Part shown: piece after piece, positions 15,501 to 52,237 of the stretch | How positions within the stretch are numbered: the first letter of the stretch is position 1 | How the letters are laid out: every line of letters begins with the position of its first letter | NCBI GenBank assembly: GCA_022601195.1 | Contig: JAHZIX010000041.1 | Coordinates: forward strand, 102,668 to 166,667 | Source of the DNA: Deltaproteobacteria bacterium | GTDB taxonomy: Bacteria; Acidobacteriota; Thermoanaerobaculia; Multivoradales; JAHZIX01 | Direction of reading: 5' to 3' | Length of the DNA stretch: 64,000 bases | Made by a program: the position numbers and the translations under genes | Notes under the pieces: model-generated | What the model saw: only the letters and a program-made list of their open reading frames with translations | The model's database searches: none | Told to the model about the DNA's origin: nothing

Positions 15501-15680
15501 GCACCTAGCCCCAACTTCTCACCCGCCTTCTGCTACGGCTCCGTATCGGCCCGAATCTACGTCGCCAGATTTCGCTTCCTCTCCTCGACAGAGTGCAACT
15601 CTCCCTGGGTCACGAAATTCGCCCTCTTCCTCGTATCTCCAAGGCATCTACGGCACCTCGCGACGAAGTCGGTGAGACGT
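15501..15680. repeat. ~180-bp repeat element, copy A (inverted relative to copy B at 18380-18558)
   Basis: Reverse complement of 15501-15680 aligns at ~80% identity with 18380-18558; a shared core is gtagatgccttggagatacgaggaagagg. Each copy carries a terminal inverted repeat ttctcacc...ggtgaga. Confidence 0.8.
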
Positions 15681-15687
15681 TCGGGCT

Positions 15688-18327
15688 CTAGAGGGATGGC
15701 GGCTCGGTCCATGGGAGGTAACGCTGAGTGGCAACCTCGTCACCGCGAGCCTGATGAAATTGCACCAGAGTAGCTGCGGTTTGGCGAAGCGCCAGGCTAG
15801 CGGGAGCCTGCCTTCCATGGAGCTCTTCGAAGGCCGACTCCAGAGCCGTGAGGGCTTCTTCCCTTCGACCCTGGGCCAGGAGCAGCTGCCCCTCCAGGCT
15901 CCGCACCATCGCTTGCACCAAATGCCCCTTGGGGGTGATTTCGGTAACGATCTTCTGAGCCGCCTCGAGGTGCTCTGCTGCCCCCTCGAGGTCTTGCCGT
16001 GACAACGCTATCTGCAACAGAGTGCCATGCATGACCGCCGTTCGGGTGCGGCCCCCGGGGTTACCTCGTGAATATATCTCCAGAGCCTGCCGAGCCAGAG
16101 GCTCTGCCTCCTCCACCGCTCCCCGAGCCACCAATACCTGCGCTAAGTTGTCGATACTGTGAGACCGGTTGGGATGGGAGGGGCCATAGGCGAGCAGACT
16201 GAGCTCCATCGCTTCTCGAGCGGTCACTTCGGCCTCCTCGAGGAGTCCCCTCTGCAACCGTGCCTGAGTGAGATGCCCGAGAACACTCACGATGGCGAGA
16301 CGATCCTCGGTCTCAGCGGCACGATGAATGTCTAAAGAACGGTGAAAGAGGGACTCGGCCTCGGCCGCCTTGCCCCGCCGCACCAGAGCGCCACCGAGAT
16401 AGTTCAAGGAGGTGGCGACAGTAGGATGATGGTCCCCTAGATGCTGGCGGTAGAGATCCAGACTCCTCCTCCGCAAAGCCTCGCAACGAGCATCGTGCCC
16501 GAGAGAGCCCAAGGCGTGGCTCAGAATCGTCTCCCCCCGGGCAATCTCCAGGGGCTCCTCAGGAGCTACGATCTGGAGAGTCTCCACACTTTCCCGAAGC
16601 AATTTCGCGGACCGATCTAACTCACCGAAGGAAGCCAACATCTCTCCTAGGAGGCGTTGGCTCAACGCCACCGATTTGTGCCTTCCCGGATGCAGCCGCT
16701 GCCGCAATACCAGCGCTTCCTCGGCCAGAGGGCGAGCATCCTCGTAACGCCCTAAATTCAAGTAGGCACGTCCCAGCGCATCCATCAAAGCTGCTTGGAC
16801 CTCTGGCGAATCCGCGAGCTCTTCTCCGATACGGGCCGCGGCGGGATCCAAGAGTGTTTCTACGATGGCCTTTTCGCCAACCGGATCGGTCTTTGCCCGC
16901 TCCAACACTTCGACCAACACCTGGCTGATTCGCTGTGCCACCGCGGCTTCCTGCTCCGCAACCCCTCTAGCGCGGGTGGCCTCTCGGGCCTGCCAAAGAG
17001 CAGCGACCAAAGCCAAGGAGACGGCAGCTACCGCCAGAGCCGCCAGAGTCGTCACGACGGCATGGCGCTTCACCCACTTACGCACCAGATAGGTCGGGGT
17101 ACTGCGTCGAGCGGTCACGGGAAGGTCTTCGAGCCAACGCCTCAAGTCCTTCCCCAGCTGCTCCGCCGTTGGGTAGCGAGCTGACGGATCGGCAGCCAGA
17201 GCCTTCGAAACGACTGCGTCGAGATCTCCGGCCACCTGCTTGCGCAACTGCGAGATTCGGGTAGACCGTAGCGCCGCTCGTGAAGATTGGGTCGACGATT
17301 GGCTCCCGTCGGCCTTGGAGAGGCTGTCAGAGGCCAGGGGAGCATTGCCTTTCAAGACCTGAGCGAAGAGAGACTCAGTTCCCGCGGTGGTCTCATAGGG
17401 TAGCCGGCCAGTCACCAATTGGAAGAGGACGACACCCAGAGAGTAGACATCACTACTCGTGGTGACCGGTTGGCCCTCGATCTGCTCCGGACTGGCGTAG
17501 GAAGGGGACAACAACCGCGCCGAAGAAGGGCCCCTGGAATCTATCCCGCTCCTCGGAGCCGACTCCGAGACGCTGGCGATTCCAAAGTCGAGAAGCTTCA
17601 CCACTCCTTCATGGGTGACCAGAATATTCCCTGGCTTGAGGTCTCGGTGGACGATCAAGTTCTGGTGGGCATATTGAACCGCCCGGCAGACCGCTCCAAA
17701 GAGATCCAACCGAGCCCTGATATCGAGGCGTTTCTGATCGCAGTAGCGTTCGATGGGCAATCCATCTACTAACTCCATGGCGAGGAAGGGGCGCCCTAGG
17801 GAATCCACTCCCCCGTCCAGCAACCGGGCGATATTCTCGTGATTCAGGCCGGCGAGAAACTGACGTTCCTGCTCGAAGAGGCGAATTGCTTCCGGGGAAA
17901 GACTTCCTGCCGGAAGGAGCTTGAGAGCGACTTGCTGCTCGAAAGCACCATCCGCTCGATCAGCGCGGTAGACGATCCCCATCCCGCCGCTACCAATCTG
18001 TTCCACCAACCGATAGGCACCCACCCGACGATCGGGAACCGCCTCACCAGACGCCAGGTCTCGTACCCAGGTACCGAGGCGGTTCAGCAATGCATCGCTC
18101 TCTGCGACTGGCCCATCGGCGGCAACTCCGTAGCCTTCCAGGAGGGAAGCGCAAGGACCCGTGAAATGAAGGAGCTCCGCCAACTCATGGCGCAGTTCCT
18201 CATCTCCCACTCGAGACACGAAGAGGCCACGCTCCTCCCTAGGCAGCTCCAACGCTTCCTCCATCAGAGCATCCAACACGGCCATGCGCTCGGAATCCAA
18301 GCTAGCGATCTCCTCCCCCAAATTCAA
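15688..18327 (-). CDS. serine/threonine protein kinase with transmembrane segment and C-terminal TPR repeats
   Basis: TTG start with GGAG RBS. Kinase motifs VHRDLKPGNILV, DFGIA and SPEQ are present. One TM helix (VVTTLAALAVAAVSLALVAALW) is followed by ~450 aa of TPR-like repeats. Confidence 0.9.
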   Translation of the reverse strand: MNLGEEIASLDSERMAVLDALMEEALELPREERGLFVSRVGDEELRHELAELLHFTGPCASLLEGYGVAADGPVAESDALLNRLGTWVRDLASGEAVPDRRVGAYRLVEQIGSGGMGIVYRADRADGAFEQQVALKLLPAGSLSPEAIRLFEQERQFLAGLNHENIARLLDGGVDSLGRPFLAMELVDGLPIERYCDQKRLDIRARLDLFGAVCRAVQYAHQNLIVHRDLKPGNILVTHEGVVKLLDFGIASVSESAPRSGIDSRGPSSARLLSPSYASPEQIEGQPVTTSSDVYSLGVVLFQLVTGRLPYETTAGTESLFAQVLKGNAPLASDSLSKADGSQSSTQSSRAALRSTRISQLRKQVAGDLDAVVSKALAADPSARYPTAEQLGKDLRRWLEDLPVTARRSTPTYLVRKWVKRHAVVTTLAALAVAAVSLALVAALWQAREATRARGVAEQEAAVAQRISQVLVEVLERAKTDPVGEKAIVETLLDPAAARIGEELADSPEVQAALMDALGRAYLNLGRYEDARPLAEEALVLRQRLHPGRHKSVALSQRLLGEMLASFGELDRSAKLLRESVETLQIVAPEEPLEIARGETILSHALGSLGHDARCEALRRRSLDLYRQHLGDHHPTVATSLNYLGGALVRRGKAAEAESLFHRSLDIHRAAETEDRLAIVSVLGHLTQARLQRGLLEEAEVTAREAMELSLLAYGPSHPNRSHSIDNLAQVLVARGAVEEAEPLARQALEIYSRGNPGGRTRTAVMHGTLLQIALSRQDLEGAAEHLEAAQKIVTEITPKGHLVQAMVRSLEGQLLLAQGRREEALTALESAFEELHGRQAPASLALRQTAATLVQFHQARGDEVATQRYLPWTEPPSL

Positions 18328-18379
18328 ACCGGCTCCACCTAGCCTACGGTATGGCCACTTCTGACGGCTAGAGGCCTAA

Positions 18380-18558
18380 ATTCTCACCAACTTCGTCGCG
18401 AAGTACTGTAGATGCCTTGGAGATACGAGGAAGAGGCCGAATCTCGTGCCGCGGGCAGAGTTCCATTCTGTCGAGGACAGGATTCGATGTCCCGACAACG
18501 TAGATCCAGGCAGATAGGGAGCCTTAGAAGAAGGCTGGTGAGAAATTCGGCCTAGGCT
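18380..18558. repeat. ~180-bp repeat element, copy B (inverted partner of 15501-15680)
   Basis: See copy A. Lies in the 5' region of the kinase gene, on the opposite strand. Confidence 0.8.
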
Positions 18559-19027
18559 TGCCAAGCCCCCCGTCGAGACAAAGAAGTCGGTAGCTCGACC
18601 GACCAACCAACCTGTAATGCCTTCGAAACCATCGGATCCGAGATTCTCTCGCTGACCGTAGGGGAATCCCGAATATGCTCGGCGACCAGGCTCGATTCCG
18701 CAGGATCGGTGGCAACAAAGCGGCTCAGGCCCCACAGGGTGACCATGGCCAGTCCAACAGAAACACGTAAGGCTGAATGACTTATGAGAATCGACATGAC
18801 AAGGGTCTCCAAGGCTCTCGCTAAGCAGGTCAAGGTGAATGGGTCGAAGGAATCCGCTGGAATTGCACCCGCTTTCGATTCCTCGCCGAAGACCCCAGCT
18901 CCAGGCAGGGGCCTTCTTCTCATCCTCGGAGAAATTCTCTTTTTAGCGACACCCTCGAGAAATTTTCTCGAATCAGGCTGCTCGAGAAACCGGGAGAGGC
19001 CCACCACGGCGCCGAGAGGCCTTGGGA

Positions 19028-19058
19028 GGCTTGAAAGCTGGGGGGCTTGAAAGCTGGG
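19028..19058. repeat. 15-bp tandem duplication (ggcttgaaagctggg x2)
   Basis: Direct tandem copies separated by 1 nt, just downstream of the anti-sigma gene stop. Confidence 0.7.
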
Positions 19059-19139
19059 AGGCTAGGAAAATCTTCTTCCGTCGGCTCTTAGAGCTTTGAG
19101 GTCAGCATCGAAATCGCAGGACCGGCCCGGAAACATGCC

Positions 19140-20027
19140 TCAGGAGGAATTCCCTCCATTCACCTCGAGGTCATATTCCGCGACCAGGCGCCACTCTTCA
19201 CCGCCCGGCTCTCCTCCCGACTGACCTTCGAGCCTTAACTCGTAGTGACCGGGCGCCAAGAAATCGTCGGGGAGAGCGATAGAGATGCTCCCCAATCGAG
19301 ACTTCTTTAGACCTTCCACAGCCCAAAATTCGGAACCGTCCATCGCCAATACCTTGAGGCGAAACTGAGAGTCCTGCCCCGTATCGAGGAGGTTCAGAGT
19401 TAGCGTGAAGAGGGCTGGCCCATCGGGAACACTGACCTTCGCACTATCCGGGCCACCGCGCACGAAGCCACGGGGAAAGAGGTTGAATTCTTCGACGTTG
19501 AGCCAGGGGGAGCGCATTTTCTCGAGCTCCGCTTCCAAACCAGCGACCTGGCTCTGGACTCCATCTAAAACTCGGTTTCTCTCTTCTAGCTCTTTTCGGG
19601 CTTGGGCCAATTCCGAACTTTCGCCGGAGGTCCCTAGCAGCAGAAAGGCGATGAGACCTCCAAGCATCAGGCTCAACGTCACCATTGCGGCAGCTGCGAA
19701 CCGAGACAAACCGAAGCTTCGACTAGGCGACGGAGCTGGCTTCAACTGGAAAGACATGACCGAAGCGGAGGTTTCCTCCGGTAGCACTGAGGCTCTCAGC
19801 TTTTCCCAGGAAGCGGTCTTTGCAGCATCCCAATGAGCGGGATCCGATGGCGGGTCCGGATTGGCCAGGTCCGCCAGATCCAGCATCGCGTCGCAGCATT
19901 GAGAGCAAGTCACCATGTGATCCTGGATACTCTCTACCTCGGAAGGAGACAAGTCTCCCCGGCGATAGCGGGCGAGGACCTCCAGAGAAGGATGGGGCTG
20001 GGTTGGAGTTGGGGCTGGGTCAGACAT
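19140..20027 (-). CDS. anti-sigma factor (zinc-finger ZAS-type N-terminus, one TM helix, extracytoplasmic C-domain)
   Basis: N-terminal H-x3-C-x2-C motif (IQDHMVTCSQCC) is typical of zinc anti-sigma domains. TM helix AAAMVTLSLMLGGLIAFLLLG. Start lies 24 nt after the ECF sigma gene, indicating an operon. Confidence 0.7.
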   Translation of the reverse strand: MSDPAPTPTQPHPSLEVLARYRRGDLSPSEVESIQDHMVTCSQCCDAMLDLADLANPDPPSDPAHWDAAKTASWEKLRASVLPEETSASVMSFQLKPAPSPSRSFGLSRFAAAAMVTLSLMLGGLIAFLLLGTSGESSELAQARKELEERNRVLDGVQSQVAGLEAELEKMRSPWLNVEEFNLFPRGFVRGGPDSAKVSVPDGPALFTLTLNLLDTGQDSQFRLKVLAMDGSEFWAVEGLKKSRLGSISIALPDDFLAPGHYELRLEGQSGGEPGGEEWRLVAEYDLEVNGGNSS

Positions 20028-20051: not shown

Positions 20052-20846
20052 TCAAGAACTATGTCGAGTCGAGAGTTGAGGCCTTTCGCGGCCTGGTTTG
20101 GTGTCGCTGGCGCCAGTGCTATCAGCGGCAGTGCTATCAGCGGCAGTGCTATCAGCGGCAGTGCTATCAGCGGCTGTTTTGTCAGCGGTAGTGTTTTTGG
20201 CTGTGGTGTTACCGCCCGTCGCGCTCTCAGTCTCCACGGTTTCGGCCGACTCGAAGTAGGTCTTCAACCCTTCCTCCAGTCGCTTTCGGGCCTGGAACAT
20301 ATGGACCTTTACCGTTTGCTCAGAGATTCGCAGAATCTGGCCGATGTCCCGGTAGTCGAGATCCCGTTCCAAGCGAAGCGTCATACAGCGCCGCATTTGG
20401 GCAGGAAGGCCCGCTACCGCTCGGCGGAGCAAATGACGGCGCTCGCCAGCCAGTAGGTCCAGAAGGGGCTGCTCCTGGCCGGTCGATACGGCTTCCCGGG
20501 GAAGGCTCGCTTGCTGCCAGGAGCCCGGCTCATCGTCAAAGAGCTGCACGTCCTCATGCTGGCGTTTCAGTGCCTGCTGGGAACGAAAGTGCTTACGTAG
20601 GTGATTTCTAGCAATTTGCAAAACCCAAGCCTCAAAGGGCGCCTCCCACCGATATTCTCGAATCTCCTGGTAGACCCGAGTCAAAACTTCTTGAATGAAG
20701 TCCTCCCCCATCCCCGCTTCCACTCCCTGGCGCGCGAAAACACGCGAGAGCGGACGGTAGAGATGGTCGAAGAGCCTTCGGAAGTTCTCTTCGACGGCCT
20801 CACCGTTTTGGAGATCTCGAACGACCTGAGCCAGCTGTTGTTCCAT
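20052..20846 (-). CDS. ECF RNA polymerase sigma-70 family factor with low-complexity C-terminal tail
   Basis: Start re-set to ATG at 20846 (MEQQLAQVV...), preceded by RBS GAGGAAGAGG. Sigma-2 region (FEAWVLQIARNHLRKH) and sigma-4 region (DLDYRDIGQILRISEQTVKVHMFQARKRL) present. Tail reads ...TAADSTAADSTAADSTAADSTGASD. Confidence 0.85.
   Translation of the reverse strand: MEQQLAQVVRDLQNGEAVEENFRRLFDHLYRPLSRVFARQGVEAGMGEDFIQEVLTRVYQEIREYRWEAPFEAWVLQIARNHLRKHFRSQQALKRQHEDVQLFDDEPGSWQQASLPREAVSTGQEQPLLDLLAGERRHLLRRAVAGLPAQMRRCMTLRLERDLDYRDIGQILRISEQTVKVHMFQARKRLEEGLKTYFESAETVETESATGGNTTAKNTTADKTAADSTAADSTAADSTAADSTGASDTKPGRERPQLSTRHSS
20114..20203. repeat. 15-bp in-frame tandem repeat (cagtgctatcagcgg) x4 plus 2 degenerate copies within sigma-factor C-terminal tail
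   Basis: Perfect copies visible at 20114-20173. Encodes TAADS pentapeptide repeats on the minus strand. Confidence 0.9.
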
Positions 20847-21163
20847 GCTCAACCTCTTCCTCGGAGGTTGAAGAAAACAAGCTCTGAACGGGCCTGAAAC
20901 CAAGGCACAGTTCTAGGGCGAATATTGGTGCACACCCCGAGAACTATGTCATAACGTCCTTCACCTTGGCCATGGAGAGAACCCTATGGGTCGGTCTCGA
21001 AAACCATCATCCAACCCGGGTAGATTCTCTCCACCTTTTCAGAATCGGGTTCCCTAGACATGCCCAAGTATCATCTCCTAGACAGTCAGATCCCGTTTCG
21101 CTTTCGAAGGTTTATTGATAAAGAGGAAGCCTGAACAGATACCGTTCTGTGGATTCGGAAGGG

Positions 21164-25333: not shown

Positions 25334-25503
25334 GGATGTAGATTTGAGTTGGCGCTTCTCTACGCCTCAATCGGATACATCATATCTGAAGCTCCGCCTA
25401 GCGGCACCCCATTCCCTCACTCGATTCGACTTCTTTCTTGGAGGCTCAAACCACCGTCCCTTCGAAAGGGCCCTCAGCCCCTCTAGAGGTCCTCGAACCG
25501 TAT

Positions 25504-25530
25504 GATCTAGAACCGGGAGATCTAGAACCG
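25504..25530. promoter_or_regulatory. tandem direct repeat gatctagaaccg x2 (each containing palindrome TCTAGA) plus upstream half-copy cctcgaaccg; candidate operator
   Basis: Seen in the divergent region between parE (-) and the small RHH-like gene (+), ~85 bp upstream of the latter start. Confidence 0.4.
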
Positions 25531-25614
25531 AGCATCTCCGTTGGAGTCCAAACTTCTCACCAACTTTGACTCGACTCGCTTTACCTACATTTCGCCAGGC
25601 ACTACCCTGGCATC

Positions 25615-25935
25615 GTGACACCAAAAGGAGACTTCCTCATGGCACCTTCGAACCCGGCCAAACGTCCTTCCGGAAAAAAACCTAGAACCACCGTCCAACG
25701 AGTACAAACCGGCGTCCGGCTGGAGAAACGGCTGCTCAAAGTCCTCAAAGCCCTCGCCGAGTACTTAGATATGTCTCTCGGGGACTTGTTGGAGGGAATG
25801 GTGCTTCATAACTTCGAAGGCAAAGCTCCATTCCAGTCAGAGACCCTCAGCAAGATCGCTGCTCTCAAGGAGGTCTATGGCCTCGATCTAACCGCCTCGG
25901 ATAGCCACCGGCTGCTCGAAATGGATCCAAGCTAG
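25615..25935 (+). CDS. small hypothetical protein, possibly ribbon-helix-helix (CopG/Arc-like) DNA-binding
   Basis: 106 aa, basic N-terminus (KRPSGKKPRTTVQRVQTGVRLEKRLLKVLKALAEYLDMSLGDLLEGMV), consistent with a beta-strand followed by two helices. Weak assignment. Confidence 0.4.
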   Translation: MTPKGDFLMAPSNPAKRPSGKKPRTTVQRVQTGVRLEKRLLKVLKALAEYLDMSLGDLLEGMVLHNFEGKAPFQSETLSKIAALKEVYGLDLTASDSHRLLEMDPS

Positions 25936-26916
25936 TTTCCGGCAGCGTTTCGAAACCGAAGGGGCTGCTCTCTTCGAGCCTAGTTAGAGATTCTTAGAAC
26001 GGCACTACCGAGTCGATATCTTGCCGCTCCGGGGAGACCCGGTAGACCTCTGAGCTACCGAACCTGGAGGATTGAGATGCAAGGCCGTTCCTGGGGCCAA
26101 TCTCTCCCCATATCAGTAGCCGGCAAGGCCTTGAGACCCCGCCGGCTACTCTCTCCCAACCCTCCCGGTGGCAAATAGAACCAAGGCCCCAATGCCACGT
26201 TTCGAGCCAGCATCGAAGATGCCCTAGGGCATCTTCGATGCTGGACGGTCAAGCTCGACGGGTCCACCCATCTCTCCACACCCTCCGCGAGCTTTCCCTC
26301 CCTGCCGTCTTATAAAGCAACTTCCCTGCCAACTCCGAAACGGCTTCGCAAGGCTGAGGATAGAAACTCGTAATTAGCTGAAAATAAATGAGATACGGAA
26401 GATAAGCCGATATCCACCAAGACAAAAGGGAGACCAGGGAATTTCTCCGTGACCTAGGAATTTCTCCGATAGAAGTACGGACTTCCACAGAGATCCCTTT
26501 CCAACCCTTTGGATTAGAGGCTTCAATATCCTGGAACCAAGGACTACCGAATCGGCCCTGGAGAGGCTTACGATCCGCCCCCATTGCCACAAGAGTCAGC
26601 TAAGCTACTGATAAACCAACACTTACCAGCGAACGTCAATTCTTTCCGGAGTCTGGCATCACCTTTGCGCTAGTCATCAGAGTTAGTTCTTTTCACTGCA
26701 TCGGCCCTGGCACAAACGGCTCTCCGCCAAAAATACCGCCGGGTCCACTTACTCGCTCAGCCCTGAGTCCCTCCAGGGCTGAGCACCCTTTTGAGGAGGT
26801 TGAATCGCCAACCCAGCCTTCTCCATCACCTTCTGCTCCGCACCTACCGAAATCTTCTGGCATCTCCAGGGCTTCCCGGTGAGCTCGGTGAGGTGAGCTC
26901 GGTGAAGTGGCTCCGG

Positions 26917-51544: not shown

Positions 51545-52177
51545 ATGCATCCACCGGAAGCGGCTCGAAGGCGCCCTGTTTGGGAAGCACTCTCCGATCT
51601 CTTTCTGGATACGGAAACCCGTTGGTACCTCCCCAGAATCGCCTGGGTTCTGGTCCAGTCCGAGTATTCCAAAGAAGAGCTCGAACAAATCTGGCGTTTT
51701 GAGGTGGTTCCCTCCTACTGGTGGAATCTCTTCGATATAGCCGGGGAATGGGGGGGCTTTCCCATGGACGAGAAATCCCTTCTCAAGCGAGCCCGCAGGC
51801 GACCCGGTTGGCTGCGAAAACTCATCTTCCCGCGACTGAGCCCCCTCGCAGACCCCTTGTGGCAAGGGGTACTCCAGCTTCGCGAGATTCTTCTCACCCT
51901 CCAGGAGCCCAACCAAAGGCCAGCAGCCGACGCATGGACGGCCTTCGCCGCTGCCTACCTCGAAGAAAACCTGCAAAGGCTCTTTCATCTAGAGGACAAA
52001 TTGGAGCTACTGCGAAGCACTCAGTTGCCCAGGCAAGCCTGTTTCGAGACCTTTCGTACTGACTTTCGGCCAATCTATTCCGAACAGCTGATCGGCAAGG
52101 AAAAGGCGCAGGAGGAGTCTCGAGCTGAAAACGTTCTCGAGCTCATCCAGCTCGCCTTCCGCAACCCAGATTCTTAG
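51545..52177 (+). CDS. hypothetical protein
   Basis: 210 aa ORF 12 nt downstream of the methyltransferase gene. Helical, Trp-rich (WRFEVVPSYWWNLFDIAGEWGGFP); no known motif recognised. Confidence 0.5.
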   Translation: MHPPEAARRRPVWEALSDLFLDTETRWYLPRIAWVLVQSEYSKEELEQIWRFEVVPSYWWNLFDIAGEWGGFPMDEKSLLKRARRRPGWLRKLIFPRLSPLADPLWQGVLQLREILLTLQEPNQRPAADAWTAFAAAYLEENLQRLFHLEDKLELLRSTQLPRQACFETFRTDFRPIYSEQLIGKEKAQEESRAENVLELIQLAFRNPDS

Positions 52178-52237
52178 CCCGAACTTCGCAACGAATTCGG
52201 TACGAAGCTCGGGATAGCTGATCTGCGCCTGCTTCTC

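Follow-up and report, generated by a model that had tools for sequence, protein, structure and literature searches.

The Ser/Thr kinase gene with TPR repeats in this contig is flanked by two copies of an imperfectly palindromic repeat, A (15505–15691, plus strand) and B (18368–18555, minus strand), which are probably two diverged members of one small, non-coding family of MITE-kind elements. The best reading is of a new MITE-like family of IS630 type (TA within CTAG) or IS5 type (YTAR) in an uncultured Thermoanaerobaculia-like bacterium, the repeat itself being most likely two decayed mobile-element copies beside stop codons that flank an ordinary kinase gene. Two MITE-like copies around a kinase belong to a kind of feature that is common among bacterial genomes and do not amount to a new system, and this reading opens no new biological question. 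If confirmed, it would nevertheless add an undescribed MITE-like family in a lineage of the Acidobacteriota where such elements are little catalogued, and an example of TA/CTAG-targeting elements that hit stop codons in GC-rich genomes and separate tightly packed convergent genes. For annotation, it accounts for an odd 198-bp spacer and for spurious small ORF calls, such as a 42-aa ORF inside copy A, and it cautions against taking the inverted repeat around the kinase as evidence of a switch.

Anatomy of the repeat pair

Gapped local alignment and blastn match copy A with the reverse complement of copy B along 189 bp, at 81.5% identity and interrupted by a single 1-nt indel, and the match has an E value of 9e-48 when searched against the window, that is, the whole 64-kb stretch of DNA analysed. 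The earlier note had described an inverted repeat pair of ~80% identity around the kinase, with a shared core and with ends reading ttctcacc ... ggtgaga in each copy, and all of this is borne out. Its limits (15501–15680 and 18380–18558) required correction, as the homology breaks off sharply at CTAG at all four ends, beyond which the flanking sequences are unrelated; the 7–8 nt termini described there were likewise too short, the terminal inverted repeats (TIRs) being 19–21 nt long. A repeat finder recovers arms of 120 nt (15572–15691 and 18368–18487) that are 84% complementary. The tetranucleotide CTAG is rarer in the window than expected (118 occurrences observed versus 235 expected).

The two copies measure 187 bp (A) and 188 bp (B), with a GC content of about 57–59%, and each is an imperfect palindrome over its entire length; scores of self against reverse complement are 52 for A and 74 for B, compared to a shuffle maximum of 26, and B is the better-preserved palindrome. 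The TIRs have the form CTAG(AG)SCCNAAYNTCTCACC and are complementary in both copies; the element termini have also been written as ...CCSNAAYNTCTCACC. On the plus strand, copy A runs from CTAG plus CCCCAACTTCTCACC (15505–15523) to GGTGAGACGTTCGGGCT plus CTAG (15671–15691), the latter enclosing the kinase stop codon TAG (15690–15688, minus strand). Copy B, again read on the plus strand, has CTAG plus AGGCCTAAATTCTCACC at the terminus proximal to the kinase (18368–18388) and GGTGAGAAATTCGGC plus CTAG at the distal one (18537–18555), where the CTAG holds the stop codon of an ORF at 18552–19007 (minus strand). The element is about 183 bp bounded by TA within CTAG. The CTAG or TA at its edges may represent a target duplication; CTAG is itself palindromic, and could instead form the outer end of the TIR. 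Copy A also contains an internal 10-bp direct repeat, CTACGGCTCC at 15533–15542 and its partner CTACGGCACC at 15648–15657 (both plus strand).

Within the alignment, a 29-nt stretch is identical between the copies (CCTCTTCCTCGTATCTCCAAGGCATCTAC at 15623–15651 in A and GTAGATGCCTTGGAGATACGAGGAAGAGG at 18408–18436 in B, both on the plus strand). Given 35 differences in 187 positions, a perfect run of this length is only marginally unusual (P about 0.05), and a functional site at this core was rejected as not significant. A coding remnant was also ruled out: mismatches are distributed over the three codon phases as 16/12/11, without codon periodicity, and reading frames are not kept across the 1-nt indel. 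No Pfam match was obtained for the element, and ORFs read through it give no protein family or homologue. Diversity-generating retroelements (DGRs) are marked by adenine-specific differences between repeats, a variable repeat in a coding region and a reverse transcriptase nearby. The substitutions between A and B are of all kinds, the repeats lie between genes and in inverted orientation, and the neighbourhood contains no reverse transcriptase, which excludes a DGR template/variable repeat pair; retrons and invertons were ruled out on the same substitution pattern and on the lack of a reverse transcriptase or recombinase nearby.

As placed by the earlier note, copy A fills the spacer between the kinase gene (15688–18300, minus strand; 870 aa in the NCBI annotation, with the ORF open to 18327) and a convergent gene for an ECF sigma factor (PF07638/TIGR02999; 14878–15489, plus strand), which is a neighbour of the element and not part of it, and copy B lies in the kinase 5′ region, ending 67 nt upstream of the start codon. 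The copies are 2.7 kb apart with the kinase as the single gene in between and, because they are in opposite orientation, they form an inverted repeat on either side of it. Both occupy the edge of an intergenic region, at a CTAG overlapping a stop codon, and the kinase C-terminus is of normal length compared to its orthologues. Genes within about 10 kb encode surface proteins, a HEAT-repeat protein, two sigma factors, an anti-sigma factor, the kinase, gyrA and gyrB, with no site-specific recombinase or invertase among them. Nine ORFs in the window that are large enough for a transposase, together with a 507-aa cytochrome ORF, all encode other proteins, and no transposase with matching ends was identified.

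Filled and empty sites in related loci

Copy A is missing from the orthologous loci, in which the sigma/kinase pair is convergent and element-free in eight cases (L004, L005/L006, L007, L008 and L088–L090), with the two genes overlapping or 14–32 bp apart. If A is deleted together with one TA, the spacer that remains is 19 bp long and the kinase stop codon is retained; this spacer resembles those of the orthologues, and A is therefore an insertion. The convergent gene order is the same with and without the element, which indicates that the kinase/sigma pair holds its ancestral place and orientation. An inversion restoring a co-oriented sigma–kinase operon was ruled out, the convergent order being ancestral in the eight orthologous loci. 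On the other side of the kinase, the upstream sigma70/anti-sigma/kinase synteny is likewise the same in relatives without elements. Site A is empty in L004–L008 and L088–L090. The empty counterpart of site B comes from L003, the closest relative (kinase 84% identical), where a 240-bp spacer upstream of the kinase lacks copy B. Among the sigma matches, none is the orthologue from the L003 organism; the closest three fetched (P0123, P0124 and P0126) belong to other organisms and lie in compact, element-free loci.

Derivatives of the element are present in L003 itself. Directly after the kinase stop lies a TA-flanked 68-bp element, opposite to A in its orientation relative to the kinase, which combines the left ~38 nt and the right ~40 nt of A (both alignments beat 2000/2000 shuffles), and its junction coincides with the 10-bp direct repeat present in A. 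Beyond it, up to the end of the contig, are CTAG and the initial 23 nt of an additional copy. The short copy lies between TTAA and CTAG, such that the complete ends of A, B and this copy are TA-flanked in six of six cases and CTAG-flanked in five of six. The L003 copies show a dynamic family.

Full copies within the window are limited to A and B (blastn, nhmmer and a TIR-pair scan); a possible solo terminus, CCAAACTTCTCACCAACTT at 25548–25566 (plus strand), is intergenic and upstream of gyrB, and is uncertain (nhmmer E 0.12). Searches of wider scope gave no additional copy in about 90 fetched loci (blastn, nhmmer) or in plasmids (blastn). A 22-mer core had no match in GTDB species genomes and a 20-mer core none in JGI metagenome contigs, where the element read as a pseudo-protein also went unmatched, and three patterns returned just four chance matches of 19–25 nt from IMG/VR. 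At the protein level, the 42-aa ORF called by Logan inside copy A matched only itself among 5.8 billion predicted proteins, and a 67-aa read-through frame gave two low-identity, multi-stretch matches among 1.8 billion representatives, which we took as noise. The tally is therefore two full copies in the window, and one short derivative and one partial copy in L003.

The elements are under about 300 bp in size, non-coding and bounded by TIRs, with filled versus empty sites between relatives. Dispersed multi-copy occurrence is a defining property of MITEs; here both full copies flank one gene and the L003 copies lie at the stop of that same gene, which could alternatively reflect a locus-specific role or a local duplication. 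Under the MITE-like reading, two separate insertions would have produced the inverted-repeat arrangement as a by-product, with mobilisation presumably supplied in trans by a DDE transposase whose gene lies at another locus. Candidate enzymes would be IS630/Tc1-mariner-like (TA duplication, CTAG preference) or IS5-like (4-bp YTAR duplication), and internal deletion between the 10-bp direct repeats would yield short derivatives such as that in L003. If transcribed, each copy may form a long hairpin in a 3′ or 5′ untranslated region, and by analogy with ERIC and Correia elements such hairpins could change termination or mRNA stability.

RNA structure and rival explanations

The CTAG-bounded ends, the TIRs, the lack of coding signal, the empty sites in eight orthologous loci and the L003 derivative with its further copy support the MITE-like reading given in the earlier note, which had also offered a closed RNA stem or known RNA family. 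The latter finds no backing, as Rfam yields no match and the fold of A is largely lost. Specifically, Rfam 15 gave no match at gathering scores across the whole window, and with E allowed up to 10 copy A still had no match and B matched no more than noise (IhtA at 16.9 bits, compared to a gathering score of 76), so that a known RNA family was ruled out. On either strand, the folding of copy B far exceeds that of shuffled sequences (z −3.9 and −4.6), whereas A folds no better than they do (z +0.4 and −1.4); a fold lost in A and kept in B is expected of neutral decay, not of a conserved RNA. The A(−)/B(+) strand gives the better consensus fold (−52.9 versus −32.1 kcal/mol), with G–U pairs and, in the terminal stem, one or more compensatory changes (C–G to G–C) between the two sequences compared, changes that would agree with selection on structure. 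A structured element with a function, perhaps an exapted MITE acting as a bidirectional terminator or insulator, in mRNA stability or as a small RNA, its link to the ECF sigma/kinase pair having been selected, would draw on these features, on the occurrence of elements at the kinase stop in two organisms, and on the known influence of ERIC and Correia elements on flanking mRNAs (PMC2229807). We consider it improbable nonetheless, given the fold of A, the absence of an Rfam match and the eight orthologous loci that do without any such element. In addition, neither a U-tract terminator nor a sigma-70-type promoter is predicted within A or B, two sequences are too few for covariation, and a palindrome folds on both strands whatever its function. 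It is also unlikely that a hairpin segment was simply copied once across the kinase as a local, non-mobile inverted duplication, for example by template switching at a palindrome, with no transposase and no family involved. The finding of just two full copies around one gene would suit such an event, as would the absence of copies from the public collections searched, but A and B end precisely at CTAG with unrelated flanks, their 18.5% divergence is large for a recent local event in a region where the flanking genes are still syntenic, and a different organism carries a short copy, rearranged and in the other orientation, with a second copy adjacent to it.

The inverted arrangement had suggested to the earlier note that the 3.05-kb segment 15505–18555 might be an invertible or transposable cassette, and that the two repeats might pair in the kinase mRNA. 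An active cassette, whether a two-MITE composite transposon or a kinase-orientation switch, would be in keeping with inverted 187-bp repeats around a single gene, and IS630 is known to carry composite transposons into CTAG, according to a reference cited in PMC2170065. As a past event, however, it is unsupported and very unlikely: kinase orientation and both neighbours are unchanged in repeat-free relatives, and hence there was no inversion or cassette insertion here. The ENA scaffold and the Logan contig also agree in orientation, no recombinase or invertase lies in the neighbourhood, and the uninterrupted identity available for homologous recombination is just 29 nt. Future inversion or mobilisation of the segment is a formal possibility. 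A kinase mRNA that includes B in the 5′ UTR and A in the 3′ UTR could in principle close into a 187-bp panhandle controlling translation or decay, and the modelled pairing is strongly favourable (−291 kcal/mol for the cofold of A and B versus −70 and −77 when each copy forms its own hairpin). Such a panhandle is thermodynamically possible and would require transcription to begin upstream of B and to continue through A, but no promoter is known upstream of B, each copy can fold on itself during transcription, 2.6 kb before its partner exists, and orthologues lack both copies, which together leave control of this kind very improbable. A related and highly doubtful proposal, again derived from modelled pairing, is that A and B were recruited as a two-part RNA device serving the ECF-sigma-linked kinase, in which 187-nt pairing would lead to cleavage by a double-strand-specific RNase. 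The pairing partners might be B and A at the 5′ and 3′ ends of the kinase mRNA, or convergent sigma and kinase transcripts that both cross A. If true, kinase expression would be tied to read-through from neighbouring genes, and a regulatory circuit would have arisen from two MITE insertions.

Comparison with known elements

Bacterial MITEs are described as shorter than 200 bp, with TIRs, TA at the termini and transcripts that form long stem-loops (PMC2229807). Among the elements closest in kind to the MITE-like copies described here are the Correia/NEMIS elements of Neisseria, which are likewise non-coding and intergenic near genes, with TIRs, TA termini and long-hairpin transcripts, at about 100–160 bp (PMC2229807). 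Their long and short forms (155 and 107 bp for Correia) differ by an internal segment of 50 bp (PMC2229807), a relationship resembling that between the 187-bp copies and the 68-bp L003 element. However, there is no sequence similarity between them; A and B are GC-rich with CTAG flanks, Neisseria carries hundreds of copies, and neither an IHF site nor a promoter function is known for A and B. The ERIC/YPAL elements of enterobacteria are also imperfect palindromes, of 127–170 bp and self-complementary throughout, which are transcribed from intergenic sites in either orientation, vary in size by internal insertion or deletion, and can alter the stability of flanking mRNA (PMC2229807). They differ in sequence and phylum, and ERIC TIRs are 7 bp compared to about 20 nt in A and B.

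With respect to target choice, RUP of Streptococcus pneumoniae and other IS630-mobilised MITEs share TA at both ends (PMC2229807). The IS630 family duplicates TA (PMC2170065, PMC2229807), and IS630 itself is reported to prefer TA within CTAG (PMC2170065; Tenzen & Ohtsubo 1991). As no IS630-type transposase with matching TIRs was identified, a possible assignment of A and B to IS630 follows solely from the motif at the target. MITEPsy1 of Pseudomonas syringae, which is related to IS5, is 100 nt long with 18-nt TIRs, and inserts at CTAG or YTAA with a 4-bp duplication (PMC3189936). It shows no sequence similarity to A and B, although the CTAG on both sides of each copy is similar. The sides of the L003 short copy, TTAA and CTAG, agree more readily with duplication of the 2-bp TA than with an identical duplication of 4 bp.

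Extent and make-up of the inverted repeat

The inverted repeat that the earlier note described around a gene for a Ser/Thr kinase with TPR repeats (15688-18300, minus strand) is real: gapped alignment and blastn within the window match its two copies, A and B, over 189 bp (81.5% identity, one 1-nt indel, E 9e-48), and a repeat-finder returned 120-nt arms at 15572-15691 and 18368-18487 that are 84% complementary. In end-to-end alignment the similarity starts and stops at CTAG in both copies and the flanks are unrelated, which sets the limits of A at 15505-15691 and of B, inverted relative to A, at 18368-18555. The claimed 29-nt identical core was correct (A, 15623-15651; B, 18408-18436), as were the ttctcacc and ggtgaga ends, although the terminal inverted repeats (TIRs), CTAG(AG)SCCNAAYNTCTCACC, are longer than noted, at 19-21 nt. 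Neither blastn, nor an nhmmer profile built from A and B, nor a scan for paired termini found a further full copy in the 64-kb window.

Copy A fills the spacer between the kinase and a convergent ECF sigma factor gene (PF07638, TIGR02999; 14878-15489, plus strand), and its right CTAG contains the kinase stop codon (TAG). Copy B lies upstream of the kinase, its near end 67 nt from the start codon; its distal CTAG contains the stop codon of an unannotatable minus-strand ORF (18552-19007; 151 aa, no Pfam or NCBIfam match). Beyond it, also on the minus strand, lie a weak anti-sigma-like gene (19140-20027), a second ECF-type sigma factor gene (20052-20903) and, further on, gyrA and gyrB. The source of the window is a metagenome scaffold (ENA ERZ23491219, DHAR22-1 scaffold_28, 172.9 kb), and a Logan contig from SRR15145666 has the identical arrangement. 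The MAG is labelled 'Deltaproteobacteria bacterium' at NCBI (MCH9650192/3); because Thermoanaerobaculia/Acidobacteriota MAGs supply all of the nearest sigma and kinase relatives, this deposited taxonomy looks outdated or wrong.

Each copy is an imperfect palindrome along its entire length, with self-versus-reverse-complement global alignment scores of 52 (A) and 74 (B), where shuffled sequences averaged -28 and -15 and reached at most 26. On both strands B folds far better than shuffled sequence (-75.4 and -85.4 kcal/mol; z -3.9 and -4.6), and A no better (z +0.4 and -1.4). The copies differ by 35 substitutions; since mismatches show no codon-phase bias (16/12/11) and the indel disrupts every reading frame, the unit is non-coding. 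A 42-aa ORF (MPWRYEEE...; 15519-15647, minus strand) called wholly within A by the Logan gene caller has no homologue among 5.8 billion proteins, and is therefore a spurious call due to the repeat. Outside the core, divergence is even (about 20-23%), and a 29-nt perfect run has P about 0.05 under uniform substitution, so the core is poor evidence for a functional site. Rfam gave no match at gathering scores across the window, and relaxing the cut-off to E 10 around A and B added nothing but noise; simple scans of A and B found no sigma-70-type promoter or U-tract terminator.

Orthologous loci and other copies

Orthologous sigma/kinase pairs were gathered via kinase homologues, sigma homologues and a scan of GTDB genomes. 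As in the window, the genes converge in L004, L005/L006, L007, L008, L088, L089 and L090, where they overlap or lie 14-32 bp apart and show no trace of the element; the convergent orientation is therefore ancestral, and the window's 198-bp spacer derived. Removal of A with one TA leaves CCCAACTGAGAGCAC and CTAG, a 19-bp spacer that resembles the orthologous ones and keeps the kinase stop codon, and the kinase C-terminus (…PWTEPPSL, then stop) ends at the same point as in orthologues. Across these loci (L004-L008, L088-L090), the 3' ends of the convergent PF07638/TIGR02999 ECF sigma and TPR kinase genes often overlap by about 30-60 bp, a layout that would imply transcriptional collision or antisense overlap between sigma factor and presumed regulator.

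The closest relative, contig L003 (Logan SRR15711138; kinase 84% identical), shares the upstream synteny (sigma70, 292-aa protein, kinase), and copy B is absent from its 240-bp spacer upstream of the kinase. Directly after its kinase stop (TAA) stands a TA-flanked 68-bp hairpin made of the left ~38 nt (30/37 identical) and right ~40 nt (32/40 identical) of A, both half-alignments exceeding 2000/2000 shuffles. As its junction coincides with a 10-bp direct repeat, CTACGGC(T/A)CC, found twice in A (15533-15542 and 15648-15657), this short form is best read as an internal-deletion derivative. Relative to the kinase it is oriented opposite to A, and its two flanks are TTAA and CTAG; beyond the CTAG, CCGTTCCTTCTCACCAACTTTCTG opens a further copy, cut short by the contig end. 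With A and B, the element thus has at least four members in two organisms, at TA/CTAG sites and in differing arrangements.

The stretch of about 584 bp that separates B from the anti-sigma-like gene (18556-19139) includes the unannotatable ORF and three tandem 16-bp units TGGGAGGCTTGAAAGC at 19023-19068. It lacks a counterpart in L003, where the entire spacer measures 240 bp, and could represent either one more insertion or a small gene specific to the lineage. Upstream of gyrB, an unusually long tract of about 1.6 kb (25334-26916) without an ORF of at least 120 aa contains a small ORF that begins at 25640, as well as gatctagaacc motifs repeated near 25505-25530. Intergenic CCAAACTTCTCACCAACTT, also upstream of gyrB (25548-25566), corresponds to the terminus of the element and to the beginning of the second L003 copy; the remainder is missing (nhmmer E 0.12), and it could be a solo end left by a decayed copy or match by chance. 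Between convergent genes, a TA-flanked 38-bp hairpin (52178-52215; CCCGAACTTCG...CGAAGCTCGGG) begins right after the stop codon TAG of a plus-strand gene (51545-52177). Its first 7-10 nt are the same as in the element termini, and it could represent either a minimal relative of the family or a terminator hairpin of the usual kind.

Competing explanations

The earlier note proposed that the segment bounded by A and B could be mobilised or inverted, a possibility of low prior probability. The geometry permits it, but synteny shows that the kinase has neither moved nor flipped, the ENA scaffold and Logan contig agree in orientation, no recombinase lies nearby and just 29 nt of perfect identity are available for homologous recombination. 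A past flip of the kinase by the inverted repeat, reversal of which would yield a co-oriented operon, was rejected given the ancestral convergent order. Its other proposal, a panhandle between B in the 5' UTR and A in the 3' UTR of the kinase mRNA, likewise has a low prior: computed B(-)/A(-) pairing reaches -291 kcal/mol, compared with -70 and -77 for the self-folded copies, yet the model needs one transcript across both, each copy could self-fold once transcribed, and orthologues manage without either.

The L003 copies and the sharp CTAG ends make a single local inverted duplication less likely. Three observations are compatible with a structured RNA under selection, or with an exapted MITE (a small non-autonomous DNA-transposon derivative) serving, where convergent transcripts collide, as an insulator or a stability element between them: B folds strongly, A(-)/B(+) is the strand with the better consensus fold, and the terminal stem shows a compensatory C-G to G-C change. 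The decay of A and the element-free orthologous loci weaken this reading.

A probable MITE-like element and its known counterparts

On balance, we favour reading A and B as a MITE-like palindromic repeat, a new member of a well-known kind and one of two options raised in the earlier note. This reading draws on the small size, TIRs, palindromic body, non-coding character and TA/CTAG flanks, on filled versus empty orthologous sites, on the long and short variants seen with L003, and on the decay of one copy. Two separate insertions would then have created the inverted-repeat 'cassette' around the kinase incidentally. Stop codons are a main source of TA(G/A) in a GC-rich genome, which plausibly explains why copies abut them. 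Our confidence stays moderate because no dispersed copies were found, none of nine transposase-sized ORFs in the window, nor its 507-aa cytochrome ORF, is a transposase, and CTAG may belong to the TIR instead of being a target duplication. Specifically, the core 22-mer or 20-mer had no match in GTDB genomes or JGI metagenomes, nor did the element as pseudo-protein in JGI contigs; its 67-aa read-through frame against 1.8 billion representatives and a plasmid search were negative, and IMG/VR gave chance matches only.

The CTAG flanks point to one of two candidate transposase types. IS630-family elements duplicate TA (PMC2170065), and IS630 itself favours TA within 5'-CTAG-3' (Tenzen & Ohtsubo 1991, cited there). 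Elements related to IS5, MITEPsy1 among them, target CTAG or YTAA and duplicate 4 bp (PMC3189936); the TTAA/CTAG flanks of the L003 short copy fit the TA (IS630-type) model slightly better. Taken together, the features listed above match the reviewed description of bacterial MITEs: these are under 200 bp, with TIRs, terminal TA, target duplications and long stem-loop transcripts, and among them Correia elements measure 155 and 107 bp, differing by an internal 50 bp (PMC2229807). The element described here likewise comes in two lengths set by an internal segment, the full form of A and B and the 68-bp form of L003.
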